Part shown: piece after piece, positions 6,573 through 42,552 of the stretch
Layout: the number at the start of each line of letters is the position of its first letter
How positions within the stretch are numbered: the stretch's first letter is position 1
From: Eubacteriales bacterium
GTDB taxonomy: Bacteria; Bacillota; Clostridia; Oscillospirales; CAG-272
DNA: 64,000 nt
Reading direction: 5' to 3'
Assembly (NCBI GenBank): GCA_045531455.1
Contig: JAZSEA010000060.1
Location: 5,236 to 69,235, forward strand
Made by a program: the position numbers and the translations under genes
The notes under the pieces: generated by a model
What the model was told of the DNA's origin: nothing
Database searches by the model: none
Seen by the model: only the letters and a program-made list of their open reading frames with translations

Positions 6573-7859
6573 TTAGTTTTCGCGCTTCTTGGAGATAACA
6601 GCGGTGCCTGCGATAGCAACAACTGCGAGAGCAGCAGCTGCGAAGAATACGCCGTTGTCACCGGTGTCGGAAGAAGACTCGGGAGCAGTAGTATCAACGG
6701 GAGCTGCGGTGGTCTCGGGAGCAGCCTCGGGAGCGGTCCAGCAGAGGTTCCAGATGCCAAGGCGGTCCTTGTTCTTGTCGGTACCTGCAGCGGTGTTGGT
6801 AAGGCCGTTGTTAACGATCTCAAGAATAACGTCCTCGTTGGCGTTGATGTCAAGAACTACGTCGTAAACGGTTTCCTTGGTAAGACCGGTCTTCTCAAGC
6901 TTCTCGGACTTGATAACGGTGCCGTCAGCCTTCTTAACGGTGATGGTAAGGGAGAACTGATCGTCGCCGAATGCGAAGCCGTAGTTGAATGCGAGCTGGC
7001 CGATACCGCCCTTGATAACGGAGGAGGTAAGAGTGCCGGGAACGGAGGTCTTGCCGTTGAGGGTGATCATGGGAGCATTGCCGGTGTAAGCGGCAGCGTC
7101 GGAACGAGCGCCGGTAACCTTCCAACCGTCAGCGTTGGTACGGGAGATGTAAGAGGTATCCTTGCCGCCCTCTTCGTCAGCTACGAAGGAGGAGAGGTCA
7201 GCGAGGGTTGCGTTCTCAAGGAGAGGAGCAGCGGGAACTACGGGAGCTTCGGTGGTCTCGGGAGCAGCAGTAGTCTCGGGAGCAGCGGTAGTGTCGGGAA
7301 CTACGGGAGTAGAACCAACCTCGGTGAATACTGCGGGGAACTGGGAGATCCATACGTTAGCAGCATTGTCGCCTGTGATGTACTTGATATCCGAGCAGGA
7401 GAAGGTTGTAAAGGTGTTGTAGGTGCCGAGATAACGGTCAGCGCCTGCGCAGTTTACAACGTAGGTGGTAGCGTCAGCGTTGTAGGTGAAAACGCCTGCG
7501 GGAGCATCGGTGATGCGAACGCCTGCCTTGCCTGCGGTGTACTCGTGAATGTCGATGTAGAGCTTAGCGCCGTCCTTCTCGAAGAAGAAGCGGATGCCGC
7601 CGTCAACTGCCTCTACGGTAAGAGCGACTGCCTTGGAAGCGTCGGTGTTGCCGTTGAAGAAATTGCCGTTCATGGTGCCGTCAAAGTAGAGAACTGCGTT
7701 GTCTGCCTTTGCCTGAGTAAGGGACATGGTGTAGCTCTTGCCTGCCTCAAGCTGACCGTTGATAGCGGGGGAGGGAGAAGCAGCGCTTACGGAGATGGTT
7801 CCGATCGCCATGGTGAAGATCATGATCATAGCGATAAGAAGGGATGCGAACTTTTTCAT
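6573..7859 (-). CDS. secreted cell-surface protein with C-terminal anchor
   Basis: Starts at MKKFASLLIAMIMIFTMAIGTISVSA (signal peptide). Has PETTAAPETTAAPETTEAP linkers. The C-terminus is SSDTG, then a hydrophobic segment, then KKREN. Confidence 0.6.
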   Translation of the reverse strand: MKKFASLLIAMIMIFTMAIGTISVSAASPSPAINGQLEAGKSYTMSLTQAKADNAVLYFDGTMNGNFFNGNTDASKAVALTVEAVDGGIRFFFEKDGAKLYIDIHEYTAGKAGVRITDAPAGVFTYNADATTYVVNCAGADRYLGTYNTFTTFSCSDIKYITGDNAANVWISQFPAVFTEVGSTPVVPDTTAAPETTAAPETTEAPVVPAAPLLENATLADLSSFVADEEGGKDTSYISRTNADGWKVTGARSDAAAYTGNAPMITLNGKTSVPGTLTSSVIKGGIGQLAFNYGFAFGDDQFSLTITVKKADGTVIKSEKLEKTGLTKETVYDVVLDINANEDVILEIVNNGLTNTAAGTDKNKDRLGIWNLCWTAPEAAPETTAAPVDTTAPESSSDTGDNGVFFAAAALAVVAIAGTAVISKKREN

Positions 7860-8056
7860 TTTGAAGTCCTTTCTTTTGTGAGTTTTTGTTTGGGATGATA
7901 TATTTGAATCATCCAAATCATATACATTATATCACTTTTTCGACACTATTGTCAATATATTTCTCAATATTTCTTAATAATAATAGGTAAAAACTTGACG
8001 GAGACAGCACATTTGTGCTATAATAATTGAAAAATAAACTGCAAGGCGGTGCTATT

Positions 8057-15873: not shown

Positions 15874-15977
15874 AATATGCGGATGTGTGCGGAACCAATT
15901 CCGCCGCATTAAGCAAACAAAACTTAATATGCGGATGTGTGCGGAACCAATTCCGCCGCATTAAGCATACAAAACTT
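15874..15977 (+). repeat. 2 x 52-bp tandem repeat carrying a palindromised copy of the tRNA-Leu(CAG) 5' end
   Basis: AATATGCGGATGTG recurs at 15874, 15926 and 15978, the last being the real tRNA start. The two units differ at one base. Confidence 0.9.
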
Positions 15978-15982
15978 AATAT

Positions 15983-16069
15983 GCGGATGTGGCGGAATTG
16001 GCAGACGCGCTAGATTCAGGTTCTAGTGGGGGCAGCTCCATATGGGTTCAAGTCCCTTCATCCGCACCA
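15983..16069 (+). tRNA. tRNA-Leu(CAG), class II, CCA encoded
   Basis: Manual cloverleaf: acceptor GCGGATG/CATCCGC, anticodon stem CTAGA/TCTAG with loop TTCAGGT, T-loop TTCAAGT. There is one T-T mismatch in the T-stem. Confidence 0.88.
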
Positions 16070-16109
16070 ACACAAAACGGGATGACCTTTGGTCATCCCG
16101 TTTTGTGTT
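16069..16109 (+). terminator. trailer hairpin/terminator after tRNA-Leu(CAG)
   Basis: 19-bp perfect stem AACACAAAACGGGATGACC/GGTCATCCCGTTTTGTGTT with a 3-nt loop. It begins at the terminal A of the CCA. Confidence 0.65.
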
Positions 16110-16129
16110 GGTATGAATTATATGGACGC

Positions 16130-16676
16130 CGAACCCCTTGATGTCGCTAGCGACATCAAAAATTTGCGCGCTATTGCAGCATAAAAGTATAATACCCAAT
16201 AATGCGCGCAAATAGGGGTTCGTAAGTCCCTTCATCGCGGTGGATTCTGACTGTCGCTAGCGGCATCAAAAATTTGCGCGCGATCGCAGCATAAAACTAT
16301 AATGCCCAATAATGCGCGCAAATAGGGGTTCGTAAGTCCCTTCATCGCGGTGGATTCTAACTGTCGCTAGCGACATCAAAAATTTGCGCGCTATTGCAGC
16401 ATAAAAGTATAATGCCCAATAATACGCGCAAATAGGGGTTCGTAGGTCCTTTCATCGCGGTGGATTCTAACTGTCGCTAGCGACATCAAAAATTTGCGCG
16501 CGATCGCAGCATAAAACTATAATACCCAATAATGCGCGCAAATAGGGGTTCGTAAGTCCCTTCATCGCGGTGGATTCTGACTGTCGCTAGCGACATCAAA
16601 AATTTGCGCGCTATTGCAGCATAAAAGTATAATGCCCGATAATGCGCGCAAATAGGGGTTCGTAAGTCCCTTTATC
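16130..16676 (+). repeat. tandem array of five 110-bp structured units with a tRNA-Leu T-arm mimic (tRNA-linked element, function unknown)
   Basis: GTCGCTAG recurs at 16143, 16253, 16363, 16473 and 16583. Each unit has a 12-22 bp palindrome, a 10-bp inverted repeat ATTTGCGCGC/GCGCGCAAAT, and GGGGTTCGTAAGTCCCTTCATCGCGGTGG. Confidence 0.95.
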
Positions 16677-39509: not shown

Positions 39510-40706
39510 TTATTTTAGTTCCTTCGGAGAAAAACTTTTAAGATCGGTAAAAACATCCAAATAAAATGGGTGATATGCGGTATGATACTTTTTAATCATC
39601 GACACATCAGAATCTGTCAGCAAGGATTTTTCATAGGCCTCCGAAAGAGTATATATTGAATTATCGTAATATACATACAGTCTGAAATTGTCGCTTTTAC
39701 CGCTTGGAGAAAATTGGTCACCGTAATAAACAAATTTCTCGTTTCCGATATTTTCATAGTAAATCGAATGCCCGGAGTAATTAATCAAAGATGTTCTGTA
39801 GTTGAATACATAAGCACCGTTATAATCTCCGTAATACTCGGTGATATATACATCGTCCGTGCTTGCAGTTACATTGTTTATTTCCGGAATATATCTTATC
39901 AGGGTCTTTTTGATTATTTGGTTCTTTTCTTCATCAAGCTGAACATCCGGAATCTGAGGAACAGAAACATGAATTGTCTCACCGAAGTGCTGAAGCGCAA
40001 TTACATAAAGGGATAGTTCATAAAATCTATCGTTTATAACAGCAATATCCGTATATGACAGCTCACCGGACTCATACAGATCACTAAGACAAGTAAAATT
40101 CCCGTCTTTGTATCCGACAATCTCGAAATTTGATGCTCCTGTAGAAAAAACATGATTGGCTATATGATAAGTTTGACCGGTTGAGATTACACCATAACCC
40201 GACTCAAAAATGTAGTATCCGTTATAGTATCCGAGATATAGCTCTCCGCTTTGAGTATCATACTTCAGAGCATCAATCGACTCAATCAATAATTGTTCAC
40301 TACCGTTCCTTTCTATCCAAGCTGTATTTATTTCTTTTATTAGAGCAGGTGTCAAAAGATCGTAATCTACATACGCTTGACACATATCAATCTCAATCTC
40401 ATTGATATCATCCAACACCTGCGTTGTAATATTTGTCGTCCCGCTTCCCGCGCCGGCTGTGAAATTGCTTACAACGTATGTGAAGAAGCTGACAAGCGGG
40501 GAAGCCATAGCCAGCAAGAGCAGGCTCGCCACCAGAGCAATATATATTTTACTGTGCTTGAGCGGCGTCCTCCATGATCTCACGGGCACGGGTGTGTCCG
40601 CTTCGGGCTCTTTGATGATGCTGAAAACGTCATCAATATACTTCTGATCGATATAGTCGAGTGCCGCAAGCAGGCGGCGGTCTGTGATTGTCGTTGTGTT
40701 ACTCAT
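39510..40706 (-). CDS. anti-sigma-factor-like single-pass membrane protein
   Basis: About 55 cytoplasmic residues, a TM helix IYIALVASLLLLAMASPLVSFF, and a large AT-rich-encoded extracytoplasmic domain. The ATGA start overlaps the sigma gene stop. Confidence 0.55.
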   Translation of the reverse strand: MSNTTTITDRRLLAALDYIDQKYIDDVFSIIKEPEADTPVPVRSWRTPLKHSKIYIALVASLLLLAMASPLVSFFTYVVSNFTAGAGSGTTNITTQVLDDINEIEIDMCQAYVDYDLLTPALIKEINTAWIERNGSEQLLIESIDALKYDTQSGELYLGYYNGYYIFESGYGVISTGQTYHIANHVFSTGASNFEIVGYKDGNFTCLSDLYESGELSYTDIAVINDRFYELSLYVIALQHFGETIHVSVPQIPDVQLDEEKNQIIKKTLIRYIPEINNVTASTDDVYITEYYGDYNGAYVFNYRTSLINYSGHSIYYENIGNEKFVYYGDQFSPSGKSDNFRLYVYYDNSIYTLSEAYEKSLLTDSDVSMIKKYHTAYHPFYLDVFTDLKSFSPKELK

Positions 40707-41260
40707 ACCGTGATACCCTCCTTTTTGAGTAGCTCCGCAAGTGCCTTGCGGGTCCTGTGGACCGAGACCTTGATCTTGCTCTCCGAAAAGCCCGTATGCC
40801 TCGAAATATCCGAGTATTCGAGCCCGAGCCAGAATCGCATGATAAATATCCTGCGGTCATCCGTCCTCGCTGTTTCAAGAAATTTGTTGATGATCTCGCC
40901 CGCGCGCTTTGCCTCAAAGGCGTCGGCAAGATCGTGTCCGTCCTCGACTCCCGCGAGGAATTCGTCGCCGACGATCTGAATATTTCCGCCCCGCTTCCAG
41001 GCGTTCATCTCCTTTGAACGGTTGAGCGCGTGGTTGCGCATCGCCGTTCCTATGTAGGAGCGCAGATTCTTCGGCTTCTCGGGCGGGATCGAGTTCCAAA
41101 GCGCGAGCAGAACGTCATTCAGACATTCCTCTCGGTCCTCCTTGAGTGCCAAAATGTTTGATGCGACGTAAAGGCAGAGATCGCGGTATTTCTTCTCGGT
41201 CTCGTGAATCGCGCTCTCGTCGCGGCTCCAGAATAATTCTATAAGCTTTTCATCAGTCAT
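40703..41260 (-). CDS. RNA polymerase sigma-70 family factor (ECF-like)
   Basis: 185 aa. Region 2-like ECLNDVLLALWNS and region 4 HTH EYSDISRHTGFSESKIKVSVHRTRKAL. Confidence 0.75.
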   Translation of the reverse strand: MTDEKLIELFWSRDESAIHETEKKYRDLCLYVASNILALKEDREECLNDVLLALWNSIPPEKPKNLRSYIGTAMRNHALNRSKEMNAWKRGGNIQIVGDEFLAGVEDGHDLADAFEAKRAGEIINKFLETARTDDRRIFIMRFWLGLEYSDISRHTGFSESKIKVSVHRTRKALAELLKKEGITV

Positions 41261-41297
41261 CTTTCTTCCTCCTTTCCGAAATGTCCCTTCACTTACA

Positions 41298-41325
41298 TAG
41301 ACAACTTCCGCAGGAAAAGGTTACA
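41298..41325 (-). promoter_or_regulatory. candidate ECF-type promoter upstream of the sigma operon
   Basis: On the minus strand: TGTAAC, 17 nt, GTCTA, about 35 nt upstream of the ATG. It resembles AAC/CGTC-type ECF promoters. Confidence 0.35.
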
Positions 41326-41446
41326 AGTTTTTTTAATAAAATAGCGAAAAAAATTGCTTAAGCAAATTTTTACCTTAACATTCCGCCAAAGGCGGAATAT
41401 TTCACTCGCGCAGCGGCACCAAATAAGGCACCCAACCGCTAGGCGG

Positions 41447-41571
41447 TACATAGGGCGGGACTTACGAACCCATATTTGCGCGTGATGTGCTGAAATAAAC
41501 TTATAAGGATCAGCGCAAATTTTTCGTGTTGCTTTGCAACACGAAGTGGGTTCGAGTATGCGATCTGTACG
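41447..41571 (-). repeat. single diverged copy of the tRNA-linked structured element
   Basis: Same order and orientation relative to its tRNA as the 16-kb array. Stem coordinates: S1 41547-41554/41465-41472, S2 41523-41545, S3 41474-41520. The T-arm mimic GGGTTCGTAAGTCCCGCC is on the minus strand. Confidence 0.85.
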
Positions 41572-41612
41572 AAATAAGGCACCCAACCGCTAGGCGGTTG
41601 GGTGCCTTATTT
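41572..41612 (-). terminator. trailer hairpin/terminator after tRNA-Leu(CAA)
   Basis: 19-bp perfect stem with a 3-nt loop, beginning at the terminal A of the CCA and followed by a T-rich tract on the minus strand. Confidence 0.65.
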
Positions 41613-41698
41613 GGTGCCGGTGGCGGGACTTGAACCCGCACGATATTGCTACCAACGGATTTTGAGTCCGTCGCGTCTGCCGATTCCGCCACACCGGC
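41612..41698 (-). tRNA. tRNA-Leu(CAA), class II, CCA encoded
   Basis: Manual cloverleaf: acceptor GCCGGTG/CACCGGC, anticodon stem ACGGA/TCCGT with loop CTCAAAA, T-arm GCGGG-TTCAAGT-CCCGC. Confidence 0.9.
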
Positions 41699-41708
41699 GT
41701 TCTTGCAT

Positions 41709-41737
41709 ATTATATCACAAATCACCGAGAAAATCAA
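41709..41737 (-). promoter_or_regulatory. sigma-70-type promoter for tRNA-Leu(CAA)
   Basis: On the minus strand: TTGATT, 17 nt, TGATATAAT. The tRNA 5' end lies 10 nt after the -10. Confidence 0.65.
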
Positions 41738-41880
41738 TACTTATTATTGAATTGATTTGAAAAATGTGTTATAATGGTATCAGTCGGTGAATTTTCAACA
41801 ATTCTTGATTTATAATTGAAGAACAATTTAGTTTTGTATAGTATAATGTATCAGTAAAAATATACCTTGGAGGCAAATAA

Positions 41881-42552
41881 ATGTTCCGAATCCTCATAGC
41901 AGAAGACGACCGCGAGCTTCGCCAGCTTTTTTCACACGTTTTAGCCAAGAACGGCTACAGCGTCGTTGGAGTATCAAACGGCAGGGAAGCGCTCACCGAG
42001 ATCGAGGCAGGCTATTTTGATCTTATAATTTCCGATATAATGATGCCCGTGATGGACGGCTACGAGCTCGTCCGCTCACTCCGCGAGGCTGAAAACCATA
42101 CCCCTGTCTTGATGATAACCGCAAAGGACGCTTTCGACGCGATGCAGCTCGGATTTATGTCGGGCACCGATGACTATATGGTCAAGCCCATAAACGTAAA
42201 CGAAATGATCCTCCGCGTCGGTGCGCTCCTCCGTCGCGCACAGCTTATCAGCGAGAGAAGACTCACAATCGGCGAGACGACAATGGAATGTGATTCTCTG
42301 ACGGTAACTACCTCGGGCGAGAGAATGATCCTTCCGCAGAAGGAATTTATGCTCTTATTCAAGATGGCGTCCTTCCCGGGCAAGATCTTCACCCGCCAGC
42401 AGCTTATGGACGATATCTGGGGCTACGATTCCGGCACCGATACCCATACCGTCGACGTACATATCGGACGCTTGCGCGACCGCTTCCGTGATTGCGAGGA
42501 TTTCAAGATCGTAACTATGCGCGGAGTCGGATATAAGGTGGTGAAGGCGTGA
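41881..42552 (+). CDS. OmpR-family response regulator
   Basis: Receiver domain (DLIISDIMMP phospho-acceptor Asp region) plus a winged-helix C-terminus (VDVHIGRLRDRF...RGVGYKV). Confidence 0.88.
   Translation: MFRILIAEDDRELRQLFSHVLAKNGYSVVGVSNGREALTEIEAGYFDLIISDIMMPVMDGYELVRSLREAENHTPVLMITAKDAFDAMQLGFMSGTDDYMVKPINVNEMILRVGALLRRAQLISERRLTIGETTMECDSLTVTTSGERMILPQKEFMLLFKMASFPGKIFTRQQLMDDIWGYDSGTDTHTVDVHIGRLRDRFRDCEDFKIVTMRGVGYKVVKA

Follow-up and report, generated by a model that had tools for sequence, protein, structure and literature searches.

REP/BIME, pneumococcal BOX, ERIC, and Correia elements occur as tens to hundreds of dispersed copies at many kinds of sites. Integron attC sites and Vibrio cholerae repeats are about 120 nt long, are conserved in structure rather than in sequence, and form arrays beside a fixed site. 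Two other systems are tied to tRNA genes. Phage Ms6 exchanges strands within the T-loop of tRNA-Ala, with a 26-base core (PMC1762012). In E. coli, 3'ETS-leuZ of glyW-cysT-leuZ pairs with the small RNA RyhB (PMC6191717). A full-text search of the literature returned no relevant description of a tRNA-Leu-linked repeat. Here, we describe such a repeat in a 64,000-nt stretch of DNA from a Eubacteriales bacterium (contig JAZSEA010000060.1), which we call the window and which carries the repeat behind two tRNA-Leu genes, at 41 kb and at 16 kb.

At the 41-kb locus, the tRNA-Leu(CAA) gene lies on the minus strand at 41612..41698 with its CCA encoded (called by ARAGORN; 61.3 bits with the Rfam tRNA model), and a promoter scan placed its promoter, TTGATT-17-TATAAT, at 41737..41709. 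The features that follow are read in the tRNA sense, on the minus strand. The tRNA is followed by a proximal intrinsic terminator (41572..41612) that was recognized by direct reading, as an inverted repeat, and as a terminator-like match. Its 19-bp stem, AAATAAGGCACCCAACCGC / GCGGTTGGGTGCCTTATTT with the loop CTA, has a left arm that begins at the final A of the tRNA's CCA. With this stem followed by TTATTT, the hairpin qualifies as a Rho-independent terminator, as does the 26-bp stem of the same-species strain L113, which lacks the repeat unit. Two long repeats are superimposed on this arrangement. Positions 41421-41446 are identical to 41572-41597, a direct repeat that extends to 30 nt at 97% identity, and 41414-41439 is the exact reverse complement of 41594-41619, which covers the last 8 nt of the tRNA, CGGCACCA. 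A first-pass annotation had listed both repeats and three helices between them, and we found all of them where it had placed them.

Strain comparison and covariance model R1 delimited one complete repeat unit of 151 nt at 41421..41571 (R1 match at 41444-41573: 98.6 bits, E = 1.6e-25). Five parts make up each unit: a spacer, a three-way junction spanning about 90 nt, an incomplete copy of the neighbor's T-loop and T-stem, a linker, and a copy of the terminator loop and right arm. The spacer, CGTACAGATCGCATACT (41555..41571), was defined by comparing unit starts across loci and with the empty site, and it begins with a diverged 7-nt copy of GGTGCCG, which is complementary to the tRNA 3' end. The three-way-junction core (41465..41554) emerged from a helix search, folding, and covariation within the family. 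It has a perfect outer stem, CGAACCCA/TGGGTTCG (41547-54/41465-72); a perfect 10-bp hairpin 1, TTCGTGTTGC/GCAACACGAA, with the loop AAA (41523-41545); and a perfect stem 2, ATTTGCGC/GCGCAAAT (41513-20/41474-81), which closes a variable loop of 31 nt (41482-41512). The junctions are only 0 to 3 nt long. When folded, the 125-nt core between the direct repeats at 41 kb adopts this three-way junction at -39.6 kcal/mol (z = -5.1).

The remainder of the unit resembles the end of the tRNA locus itself. The T-arm mimic, GGGTTCGTAAGTCCCGCC (41454..41471), was identified by direct reading, by a repeat search, and by comparing its tails across loci. Its GGGTTCG is shared with the outer stem, its loop has two additional bases (GT), and its AAGTCCCGCC copies the 3' half of the T-loop, the T-stem, and the first acceptor base of the neighboring tRNA. 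The linker CTATGTA (41447..41453), delimited by strain and species comparison, stands in for 24 nt that would hold the 3' strand of the acceptor stem, the CCA, and the greater part of the terminator left arm, and it is hypervariable among strains and species. The unit closes with a partial terminator copy, CCGC-cta-GCGGTTGGGTGCCTTATTT (left-arm top, loop, and right arm; 41421..41446), which is the distal half of the direct repeat; in other species this repeat is specific to its locus. Thus, the first-pass description of the flanks as an att-site-like duplication is apt as a description: they are a partial duplicate of the neighbor's T-loop and T-stem together with its terminator.

The strain L113 offers an empty site, which the first-pass annotation had proposed to look for in relatives. 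It has neither the 125-nt core nor one of the two 26-nt repeat copies, that is, segment 41421-41571, of which two copies are present in L112 and L119. In L113, GGTGCCG stands directly 3' of the single right arm. In the window this heptamer lies at 41414..41420; strain comparison and repeat analysis show it to be the outermost part of the original terminator stem, facing the complementary CGGCACC of the tRNA. That terminator formed one hairpin of 26 bp, CGGCACCA of the tRNA included, and is now split by the unit; the nested palindromes are a by-product. This recasts the proposal that the right arm has an alternative 26-bp distal partner. The complementarity is there and would sequester the CCA end, but it is the original terminator, now split, and not a new alternative structure.

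Strains of the window species carry 0, 1, or 2 units and those of a sister species 1 to 5, which are lower bounds because MAG assemblies can collapse tandem units. The 0-, 1-, and 2-unit alleles are set apart by precisely one 151-nt period, with the 26-33-nt terminator repeat at its boundaries, and recent gain and loss map to these repeats and not to the T-loop. Recombination across these repeats adds units in some strains and removes them in others. Strains also exchange terminator-plus-spacer segments whole, between a conserved tRNA and a conserved core. There are also microhomology deletions at GCCAC and TGCGCG, and the distal units of arrays are often truncated. The element is not essential, since empty (L113) and degenerate (L131, L132) alleles exist.

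The sister array, found by repeat and motif searches and by model R1, lies on the plus strand at 16108..16676 behind tRNA-Leu(CAG) (15983-16069) and comprises 4.9 tandem units with a 110-nt period. This tRNA gene has no promoter of its own and sits behind the hairpin of a tRNA-Leu(GAG) gene; the gene downstream of the array is convergent. The corresponding array of a relative (L008) has 2.9 units and a different terminator. The motif GCAAATNNGGGTTCGTANGTCC occurs six times in the window, five times in the array and once in the 41-kb unit, versus 0.01 expected. Only the first unit of the array keeps the outer-left arm, CGAACCCC. A cloverleaf-like fold is seen only in the internal units at 16 kb and is weak (z = -2.6).

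Between the two loci, hairpin 1 has three base pairs that differ on both sides, and one C:G pair of the outer stem is replaced by A:T. The first-pass annotation had reported compensatory changes in three stems. This holds for two, hairpin 1 and the outer stem; stem 2 is conserved between the loci, as sequence comparison confirmed and as that annotation itself had also said of the ATTTGCGC stem, which covaries only in more distant family members. We also found that the T-arm mimic follows its own neighbor, as had been claimed: its tail is CCCGCC at 41 kb and CCCTTCATC at 16 kb, with TTCgtAAGT at both, and tails match the local isoacceptor across the loci of the family.

We then scored the structure over 28 distinct units in a gapless, curated alignment parsed by anchors. 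This alignment replaced that of model R1, in which subfamilies B and C were shifted; on a plain MAFFT alignment, RNAalifold found only part of hairpin 1 because subfamilies were mis-registered. Paired cells made up 93.8% of the total versus 30-47% in slid controls, and none of 500 shuffles scored as high for covariation. In hairpin 1 every cell is paired (100%), 4 of its 9 pairs change on both sides, and about 20 truly different hairpin 1 stems all keep their pairing. Stem 2 changes from UA to GC and from CG to UA. The innermost pair of the outer stem varies among A-U, C-G, G-C, and G.U and is unpaired in 13 of the 28 units; the outer-left arm is absent from the internal 16-kb units and from D' units. 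At positions of hairpin 1 that are paired in the MFE structure, the non-Watson-Crick cells are G.U when read on the tRNA-sense strand (at least five independent cases) and never A.C, and the G.U of stem 2 in subfamily D is on the same strand. The invariance of GGGTTCGTA.GTCC is partly due to the search pattern, and it is relieved only in part by L034 (TTCTGAGT) and L006 (GC for GT). The hairpin-1 loop is usually G(CUUG)C. Thus, the suggestion of a conserved RNA or DNA structure is borne out: the fold is kept, with compensatory changes, in at least 28 distinct copies from many species, and the further copies preserve the pairings.

The family comprises 22 loci in 17 species-level genomes, which are MAGs of uncultured ruminant-gut Clostridia. 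Wherever upstream DNA was available, the neighbor was tRNA-Leu(CAA), (CAG), or (GAG), with the unit in the orientation of the tRNA. The GCAAAT anchor is downstream of a same-orientation tRNA-Leu at all 16 loci with a called tRNA, at a distance of 133-143 nt at 15 of them and of 290 nt in L003, where another module lies between. In a collection of 185,579 species genomes, all 25 pattern matches fell within tRNA-Leu flanks, with two or three loci per genome, and no genome had a copy away from such a flank. A relaxed-pattern scan of metagenomes returned 86 stretches, nearly all of them chance matches from soil or water samples; the only family members among them were L034, L039, and L101, the last of which has its unit downstream of tRNA-Leu as at the other loci. 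Against Rfam 15, whose families include ribozymes, YrlA, tmRNA, and sRNAs, only the tRNAs passed gathering scores, and nothing meaningful covered the unit at either locus at E values up to 10. Segment 41421-41571 is a unit of a low-copy repeat family of ruminant-gut Clostridia that is strictly linked to tRNA-Leu and is not in Rfam.

A neutral origin would make the units debris of a chance local duplication, expanded and contracted through its repeats and carrying no selected structure. The empty and degenerate alleles, the truncated distal units, and the microhomology deletions fit such a history. However, debris would not be expected behind three tRNA-Leu genes in 17 species at a fixed distance, nor with a hairpin 1 that is fully paired over some 20 stem sequences, nor with stems conserved where the neighboring loops and linkers have been randomized. 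We regard this already disfavored explanation as highly improbable. Stems are near-identical between species and loops and linkers are unalignable, and the subfamily of a unit follows the relatedness of the neighboring response-regulator gene. This combination suggests selection rather than recent spread.

The reading that we prefer, and to which we give an even chance, is that selection maintains a structure on the tRNA-sense strand, which would most likely be a read-through trailer RNA. The selected feature would be the single-stranded fold of that strand, on which the G.U cells lie. The RNA would arise when transcription from the strong tRNA-Leu promoter reads past the proximal terminator. 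The right-arm copy and U-tract at the end of each unit could then pair with the single left arm, so that read-through transcripts would end at a defined 3' position. The module might act in cis, on the precursor of tRNA-Leu, or in the form of a stable RNA derived from the trailer, and it is dispensable, as the empty and degenerate alleles show. Read-through into units is plausible from the layout at 16 kb, where the promoterless tRNA-Leu(CAG) would itself be transcribed from behind the tRNA-Leu(GAG) hairpin. The good intrinsic terminator ahead of the unit may keep such RNA at low levels. Other points that count against this reading are the unpaired innermost pair of the outer stem in 13 units, the units that have no outer-left arm, the empty and degenerate alleles, and the lack of a consensus promoter inside the units. 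Transcription from within the unit was considered separately. TTGCGC and the A/T-rich loop look promoter-like by eye; we rejected an internal promoter, as no unit has a sigma-70-like site in a scan that required 9 of 12 consensus positions and that passed only the tRNA and response-regulator promoters. The first-pass annotation had doubted such a promoter from the lack of TATAAT in the 41-kb unit, where the motif is indeed missing.

The main rival explanation is that a miniature integrative module entered tRNA-Leu genes at the T-loop and has since decayed to the present unit. The module would be attP-like, bringing a tRNA 3' end, its own terminator, the spacer, and a core ending in GGGTTCGT, and would be moved in trans by a tyrosine (or serine) integrase. 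Arrays would grow by repeated entry on the side next to the tRNA, and the tRNA 3' copies displaced in this way would then lose small segments. This would resemble phage Ms6 at tRNA-Ala T-loops, for which T-loop strand exchange with a 26-base core is documented (PMC1762012). As in an att duplication, direct repeats of a tRNA 3' segment flank the insert and L113 provides an empty site. The unit ends copy the local tRNA from the T-loop on, and in L004a, L006a, and L022 the copy runs in full to the CCA, with a terminator behind it. The two terminators of L022 differ, and the distal one is that of the related L012, as attL/attR logic predicts. A second, unrelated module of the GC-rich loci ends at the identical T-loop point, the tRNA-proximal unit looks newest or divergent in L112 and L121, and L004, L034, and L117 suggest island integration at these tRNA-Leu genes.

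However, several observations do not fit an integrase well. There is no recombinase gene among the flanking ORFs at the 41-kb locus, L018, or L022; the genes examined there belong to the ordinary host repertoire, including an ECF sigma factor, a two-component system, and an ABC transporter. Nor did any family member appear in 2.9 million viral contigs (one chance match lay inside a coding region), 50,697 phage records, or 72,556 plasmid records. The tRNA has TTCAAGT and the unit has TTCGTAAGT (or TTCGCAAGT or TTCTGAGT) in every copy; the distal T-loop thus has 9 bases instead of 7, and the copies have no identical overlap of the kind that such integrases need. Gain and loss between strains map to the terminator repeats rather than to an att core, and L114-type alleles would lose their tRNA if excision took place at the T-loop. 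For double-stranded att sites there is no reason why the hairpins should covary. One core type stands behind three isoacceptors with different acceptor stems, and the subfamilies follow host relatedness. We consider this origin possible but unlikely.

In another explanation, the unit is a folded single-stranded-DNA signal for recombination or replication, comparable to integron attC or to attP(+) of CTX phage. The outer stem CGAACCC/GGGTTCG would re-create the duplex of a T-arm half-site, and a host recombinase would add or remove cassettes beside the tRNA. Structure is conserved while the sequence of hairpin 1 is free to vary with G.T tolerated on one strand, the units of about 110-170 nt form tandem arrays, and the sequence of the outer stem matches that of the T-arm duplex, GGGTTC/GAACCC. 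G.T would likewise be tolerated in a hairpin of single-stranded DNA. Against this, the attC core sites RYYYAAC/GTTRRRY are absent (the unit has GCCGAAC and GTTCGTA), the unit folds into a three-way junction and not into a single bulged hairpin, and none of the neighbors examined is an integrase gene. Ordinary direct-repeat recombination accounts for the observed polymorphism, and many units are missing the outer-left arm. These points make such a signal quite improbable.

A system dedicated to tRNA-Leu, either a T-arm mimic RNA or a folded-single-strand cassette system, seems improbable to us. The mimic RNA may switch between a closed three-way junction and an open form that displays the T-arm, and it may act by titrating or recruiting a factor with affinity for T-arms or for tRNA precursors, or by shielding tRNA-Leu from an attacking nuclease. 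In the cassette version, units may be added next to the tRNA because the outer stem copies the T-arm duplex. Either version, if true, would make this a tRNA-linked element of an undescribed kind.

Several other identities were considered and rejected. The unit is not a tRNA or pseudo-tRNA: the three true tRNAs are all that ARAGORN and the Rfam tRNA model recognize, and a tRNA-like gene would need the 5' acceptor strand, which is absent even from units with a full 3' tail. A dispersed MITE or REP repeat does not agree with copies that are found only in tRNA-Leu flanks and with a flanking repeat of at least 26 nt that derives from the terminator. An IS200/IS605-type element would have paired subterminal hairpins, which are absent, and there is a long duplication. 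Units of 110-170 nt that are homologous throughout do not suit a CRISPR or a type III antitoxin-like RNA array, and junctions of just 0-3 nt do not suit a hammerhead or other small ribozyme. For a guide RNA, we compared the stem-2 loop with the flanks and saw by eye no consistent complementarity; the loop allele is independent of terminator type.

If the fold is a functional RNA, it would represent a new class of tRNA-trailer RNA, restricted to one amino acid family and partly built from a copy of its own tRNA, with a dose that varies between strains of abundant rumen bacteria. If instead it is a relic of T-loop integration, att-type modules can persist and multiply as gene-free units of 150 nt. 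At tRNA-Leu loci in rumen MAGs, the family accounts for a class of assembly breaks and of length polymorphisms between strains, and model R1 is ready for annotating such loci. It also calls for caution, as long palindromes that overlap tRNA 3' ends may be split terminators and not regulatory switches.

How does the unit compare with the systems described above? Like REP/BIME, BOX, ERIC, and Correia elements, it is small, non-coding, and modular, has a stable fold, lies behind genes or terminators, and varies in subunit number and between strains. Unlike them, it is limited to two or three tRNA-Leu flanks per genome and incorporates the end of its host tRNA. With integron attC and Vibrio cholerae repeats it shares a size near 120 nt, conservation of structure, and arrays next to a fixed site, but it has no R''/R' core consensus, cassette ORFs, or nearby integron integrase, and it folds as a three-way junction. 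The duplications that integrases leave at att sites (Ms6, tandem island accretion, and CIMEs) also place a direct repeat of the tRNA 3' part, from the T-loop on, around extra DNA, keep the tRNA intact, and give tandem arrays and empty sites in relatives. In contrast to these, the insert here is 110-190 nt and gene-free with no integrase nearby, the distal T-loop has two more bases, the duplicate in most units is without the acceptor strand, CCA, and left arm, and current gain and loss proceed through the terminator repeat. 3'ETS-leuZ is likewise non-coding, lies directly behind a tRNA-Leu on the tRNA strand, and may have a role of its own once transcribed. However, it is short, unrepeated, and located between the tRNA and the terminator, whereas the unit, which has no sequence relation to it, comes after the terminator and adds a 90-nt three-way junction, a copy of the tRNA T-arm, and arrays of variable copy number.

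The strains sharing the tRNA-Leu(CAA) locus at 41 kb differ by the presence of a structured repeat unit. On the minus strand, the tRNA (41698..41612) is followed by a 19-bp terminator hairpin (41612-41572), a 17-nt spacer, CGAACCCA and a perfect 10-bp hairpin. Next come ATTTGCGC and GCGCAAAT on either side of a 31-nt loop, TGGGTTCG-TAAGTCCCGCC, the linker CTATGTA, a second copy of CCGCctaGCGGTTGGGTGCCTTATTT and GGTGCCG. The core is predicted to fold as a three-way junction (-39.6 kcal/mol, z = -5.1). The window contains six occurrences of the diagnostic motif, where 0.01 would be expected: five lie in the array behind tRNA-Leu(CAG) (16108-16676) and one at the 41-kb locus. We confirmed the exact 26-nt direct repeat described here by the first-pass annotation, as well as the exact 26-nt inverted repeat that takes in CGGCACCA. 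Its comparison of the two loci also stood, except that compensatory change is seen in two stems rather than the three it had named.

Using exact-protein look-up of the neighbouring response regulator, we retrieved further strains of the same species. One of these, L113, is the empty site that the annotation had suggested seeking in relatives: the tRNA is followed by a single hairpin, CGGCACCAAATAAGGCACCCAACCGC-tat-GCGGTTGGGTGCCTTATTTGGTGCCG, with no unit and no match to our covariance model. The window differs from L113 by exactly 151 nt (41421-41571). The loop at the L113 junction is a variant of its own (tat), and one further similar contig is reported. Because L113 has the tRNA and one hairpin but no unit, the distal 26-bp pairing, previously offered as an alternative structure, is present but is the original terminator.

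At this locus one unit is found in the window and in strains L111, L114, L115 and L116, and two in L112 (the same locus as L020) and L119; these and all unit copy numbers are lower bounds, as MAG assemblers can collapse tandem units. About 700 nt of flank are otherwise almost identical, and the unit interiors are mosaic: identical stems lie beside unalignable alleles of the loops of stem 2 and hairpin 1 and of the linker. Strains of a sister species, whose response regulator is 94% identical, have 1, 2, 3 or 5 units with subfamily types D and A alternating; there the tRNA-adjacent terminator comes in three unrelated versions, and strain L121 is visibly mosaic. In one more distant species, strains L131 and L132 have only a degenerate unit and strain L133 an intact one. 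The 16-kb locus has 4.9 units in the window versus 2.9 in the relative L008, with different terminator-plus-spacer segments and the same core behind. Unit copy number shifts by recombination between repeats. All these differences end either within repeats or within conserved flanking sequence, with the tRNA at one side and the core at the other. Homologous or unequal recombination of the ordinary kind is enough to account for them.

Other strain differences were observed around the unit. The terminator hairpin directly behind the tRNA is swapped wholesale between close strains with identical tRNA and promoter, so that one species has three unrelated types at its CAA locus (L121-L130), and two occur at the CAG locus (window 16066-16113 versus L008 ~7815-7850). 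Strains of the window's species also vary immediately past the unit, where some have and others lack a 68-nt stretch with many small hairpins between TGCGCG micro-repeats (window 41405-41413 versus L113, L114 and L119). Strain L117 (1-400) has an identical response-regulator protein, a tRNA-Leu(CAA) T-loop reading AATT, not AAGT, and a completely different trailer with the hairpin AATCCGAACC...GGTTCGGATT; its contig ends ~130 nt past the tRNA. An integrated island may have its tRNA-proximal junction here. In L114 and L115, too, the partial tRNA copy (T-arm mimic) has AATTCCC.

A pattern scan over a collection with one genome per species yielded 22 loci in 17 MAGs of ruminant-gut Clostridia/Eubacteriales. 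At all 16 loci where a tRNA was callable, the first unit lies downstream of a tRNA-Leu (CAA, CAG or GAG) in the same orientation. At 15 of these loci, 133-143 nt separate the anchor from the tRNA end; at L003, where another module lies in between, the distance is 290 nt. Loci without a called tRNA were cut off by the end of the stored stretch or contig, had foreign DNA joined at ...ACCA plus terminator (L004, and L034 from a metagenome scan) or held a degenerate unit (L013). A diverged member, L101, sits behind tRNA-Leu(GAG). No copy away from tRNA-Leu was found in any genome with family members, and the unit had no match in Rfam or in viral contigs, phages and plasmids. The arrays with no tRNA in front (L004 1990-2769, L034 525-700) abut foreign-looking DNA, which in L004 is AT-rich with an ORF before it; they resemble the distal boundary of an island inserted at the 3' end of tRNA-Leu. 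In some species (L005, L010, L039, L121-L133, compared with window 40700-41900, L011, L014 and L019), the entire cassette, from the tRNA-Leu(CAA) promoter through the tRNA to the repeat array, lies in the opposite orientation between the ECF-sigma and response-regulator genes.

Every unit carries the invariant GGGTTCG(T/C), then AAGTCCC, then bases matching the tRNA ahead of it: GCC for CAA, TTCATC for CAG, GTTT(C) for GAG and AC... for CAA of the GC-rich group. One core subfamily (A) was found with all three tail kinds; therefore, the tail is set locally. At L004a, L006a and L022 the copy extends through CCA to a terminator. Most CAA-locus units have a variable 4-8-nt linker in place of the acceptor strand, CCA and terminator left arm, followed by the loop and right arm of the same species' own terminator. 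The main rival explanation, an old integrase entry at the T-loop as for Ms6 (PMC1762012), is supported by these full-length tails, by L022 having two terminators that differ and by a second module that ends at the same T-loop point. We consider it less likely than our main reading: the distal loop has 9 bases, present-day polymorphism is not at the T-loop, and the neighbours examined at the 41-kb locus, L018 and L022 include no recombinase gene. Those neighbours are an ECF sigma factor, a gene co-transcribed with it and a two-component system at the 41-kb locus, and other ordinary host genes at L018 and L022.

The second, unrelated module lies behind tRNA-Leu(CAA) in GC-rich genomes (L012 6085-6215, L022 2880-2960, L003, L013). 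It consists of a long hairpin and then ...GCCGAGA(A/C)TCAAGTCCCACCACCGGCA(CCA), which is another decayed copy of the tRNA 3' third; even the tRNA-proximal 3' end looks defective in L012 (CACCCGCACAA). Immediately upstream of tRNA-Leu(CAG), there is a 52-nt tandem repeat (window 15874-15997, 2.4 copies), each copy of which opens with roughly the first 9 nt of that tRNA (GCGGATGTG) and continues into a hairpin; partial self-copies therefore lie on both sides of the gene. Other species keep this layout with different sequence (L006 1040-1135, L008 ~7935-8000). A probable ECF-type promoter (GTAACC ... GTCTA, 41290-41330), judged by eye and conserved in related loci, precedes the sigma-factor gene (41260..40703).

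We distinguished four subfamilies: A, with GAACCCC and the hairpin TTGCTGTTGC; B, represented by the window's 41-kb copy; C, from GC-rich genomes and with a 13-bp hairpin; and D, in which stem 2 is GGTTGCGC/GCGCAACT. Plain MAFFT and covariance-model alignments mis-registered them, so we parsed 46 distinct units by anchors and aligned 28 complete units from A, B and D without gaps over 108 columns. In this alignment, 93.8% of cells are paired, versus 30-47% with slid partners, and none of 500 shuffles reached the observed covariation score. Hairpin 1 is 100% paired, with two-sided change in 4 of 9 pairs (UA/AU/GC; GC/CG/UA; GC/CG/AU; UA/CG), and across all subfamilies ~20 genuinely different stems keep its pairing. 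Stem 2 is largely invariant, with UA -> GC and CG -> UA changes. All units keep the outer stem GAACCC/GGGTTC, in which the innermost pair varies (A-U, C-G, G-C or G.U) and is unpaired in 13 of the 28. The alternative T-arm hairpin amounts to GGG/CCC with frequent U.G. Internal 110-nt units of the 16-kb array (16236-16349), which lack the outer-left arm CGAACCCC, are predicted to form a four-way junction resembling a cloverleaf, in which a 9-bp stem (CGCGGUGGA/UUCAUCGCG) is acceptor-like and one hairpin is T-arm-like; this fold is weak (z = -2.6), and the identical L008 sequence gives it no comparative support.

The non-Watson-Crick cells of hairpin 1 and stem 2 are G.U on the tRNA-sense strand, with at least five independent cases in hairpin 1 and no A.C at paired positions. 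This bias and the usual hairpin-1 loop, G(CUUG)C, favour a fold on the tRNA-sense strand. Whole-unit folding energies did not discriminate between the strands, and the folded molecule may instead be single-stranded DNA.

The module is structurally constrained, confined to tRNA-Leu loci and carries a partial copy of its own tRNA's 3' region. Stems conserved beside randomised loops and linkers, together with subfamilies that follow host relatedness (the closest relatives have B, those at 92-94% response-regulator identity A plus D, and those at 91% A), argue for long residence under selection, not recent spread. Based on the selection and G.U evidence, our best reading, to which we give an even chance, is that read-through of the tRNA strand yields a folded RNA. 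Transcription would read through the tRNA-Leu terminator, and the right-arm copy and U-tract in each unit would provide a second termination point. Read-through is plausible because tRNA-Leu(CAG) has no promoter of its own behind the hairpin of tRNA-Leu(GAG); the units contain no promoter-like site. The element is probably non-essential. The RNA-fold reading and T-loop integration are compatible: integration may have made the duplication at first, with the core since kept for its fold.

Tested against known classes, the unit is no tRNA-like gene or ribozyme, no CRISPR or antitoxin array, and neither a MITE nor an attC site. Its nearest analogues are the E. coli tRNA trailer RNA 3'ETS-leuZ (PMC6191717), integrase-made tRNA att duplications, dispersed structured repeats such as REP and BOX, and attC repeats, but the unit lacks defining features of each. 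It is best called a structured intergenic repeat or tRNA-trailer element. As a new motif the family is solid, its population dynamics are clear and it makes predictions that can be tested; its strict tRNA-Leu linkage and built-in copy of the host tRNA T-arm are unusual.
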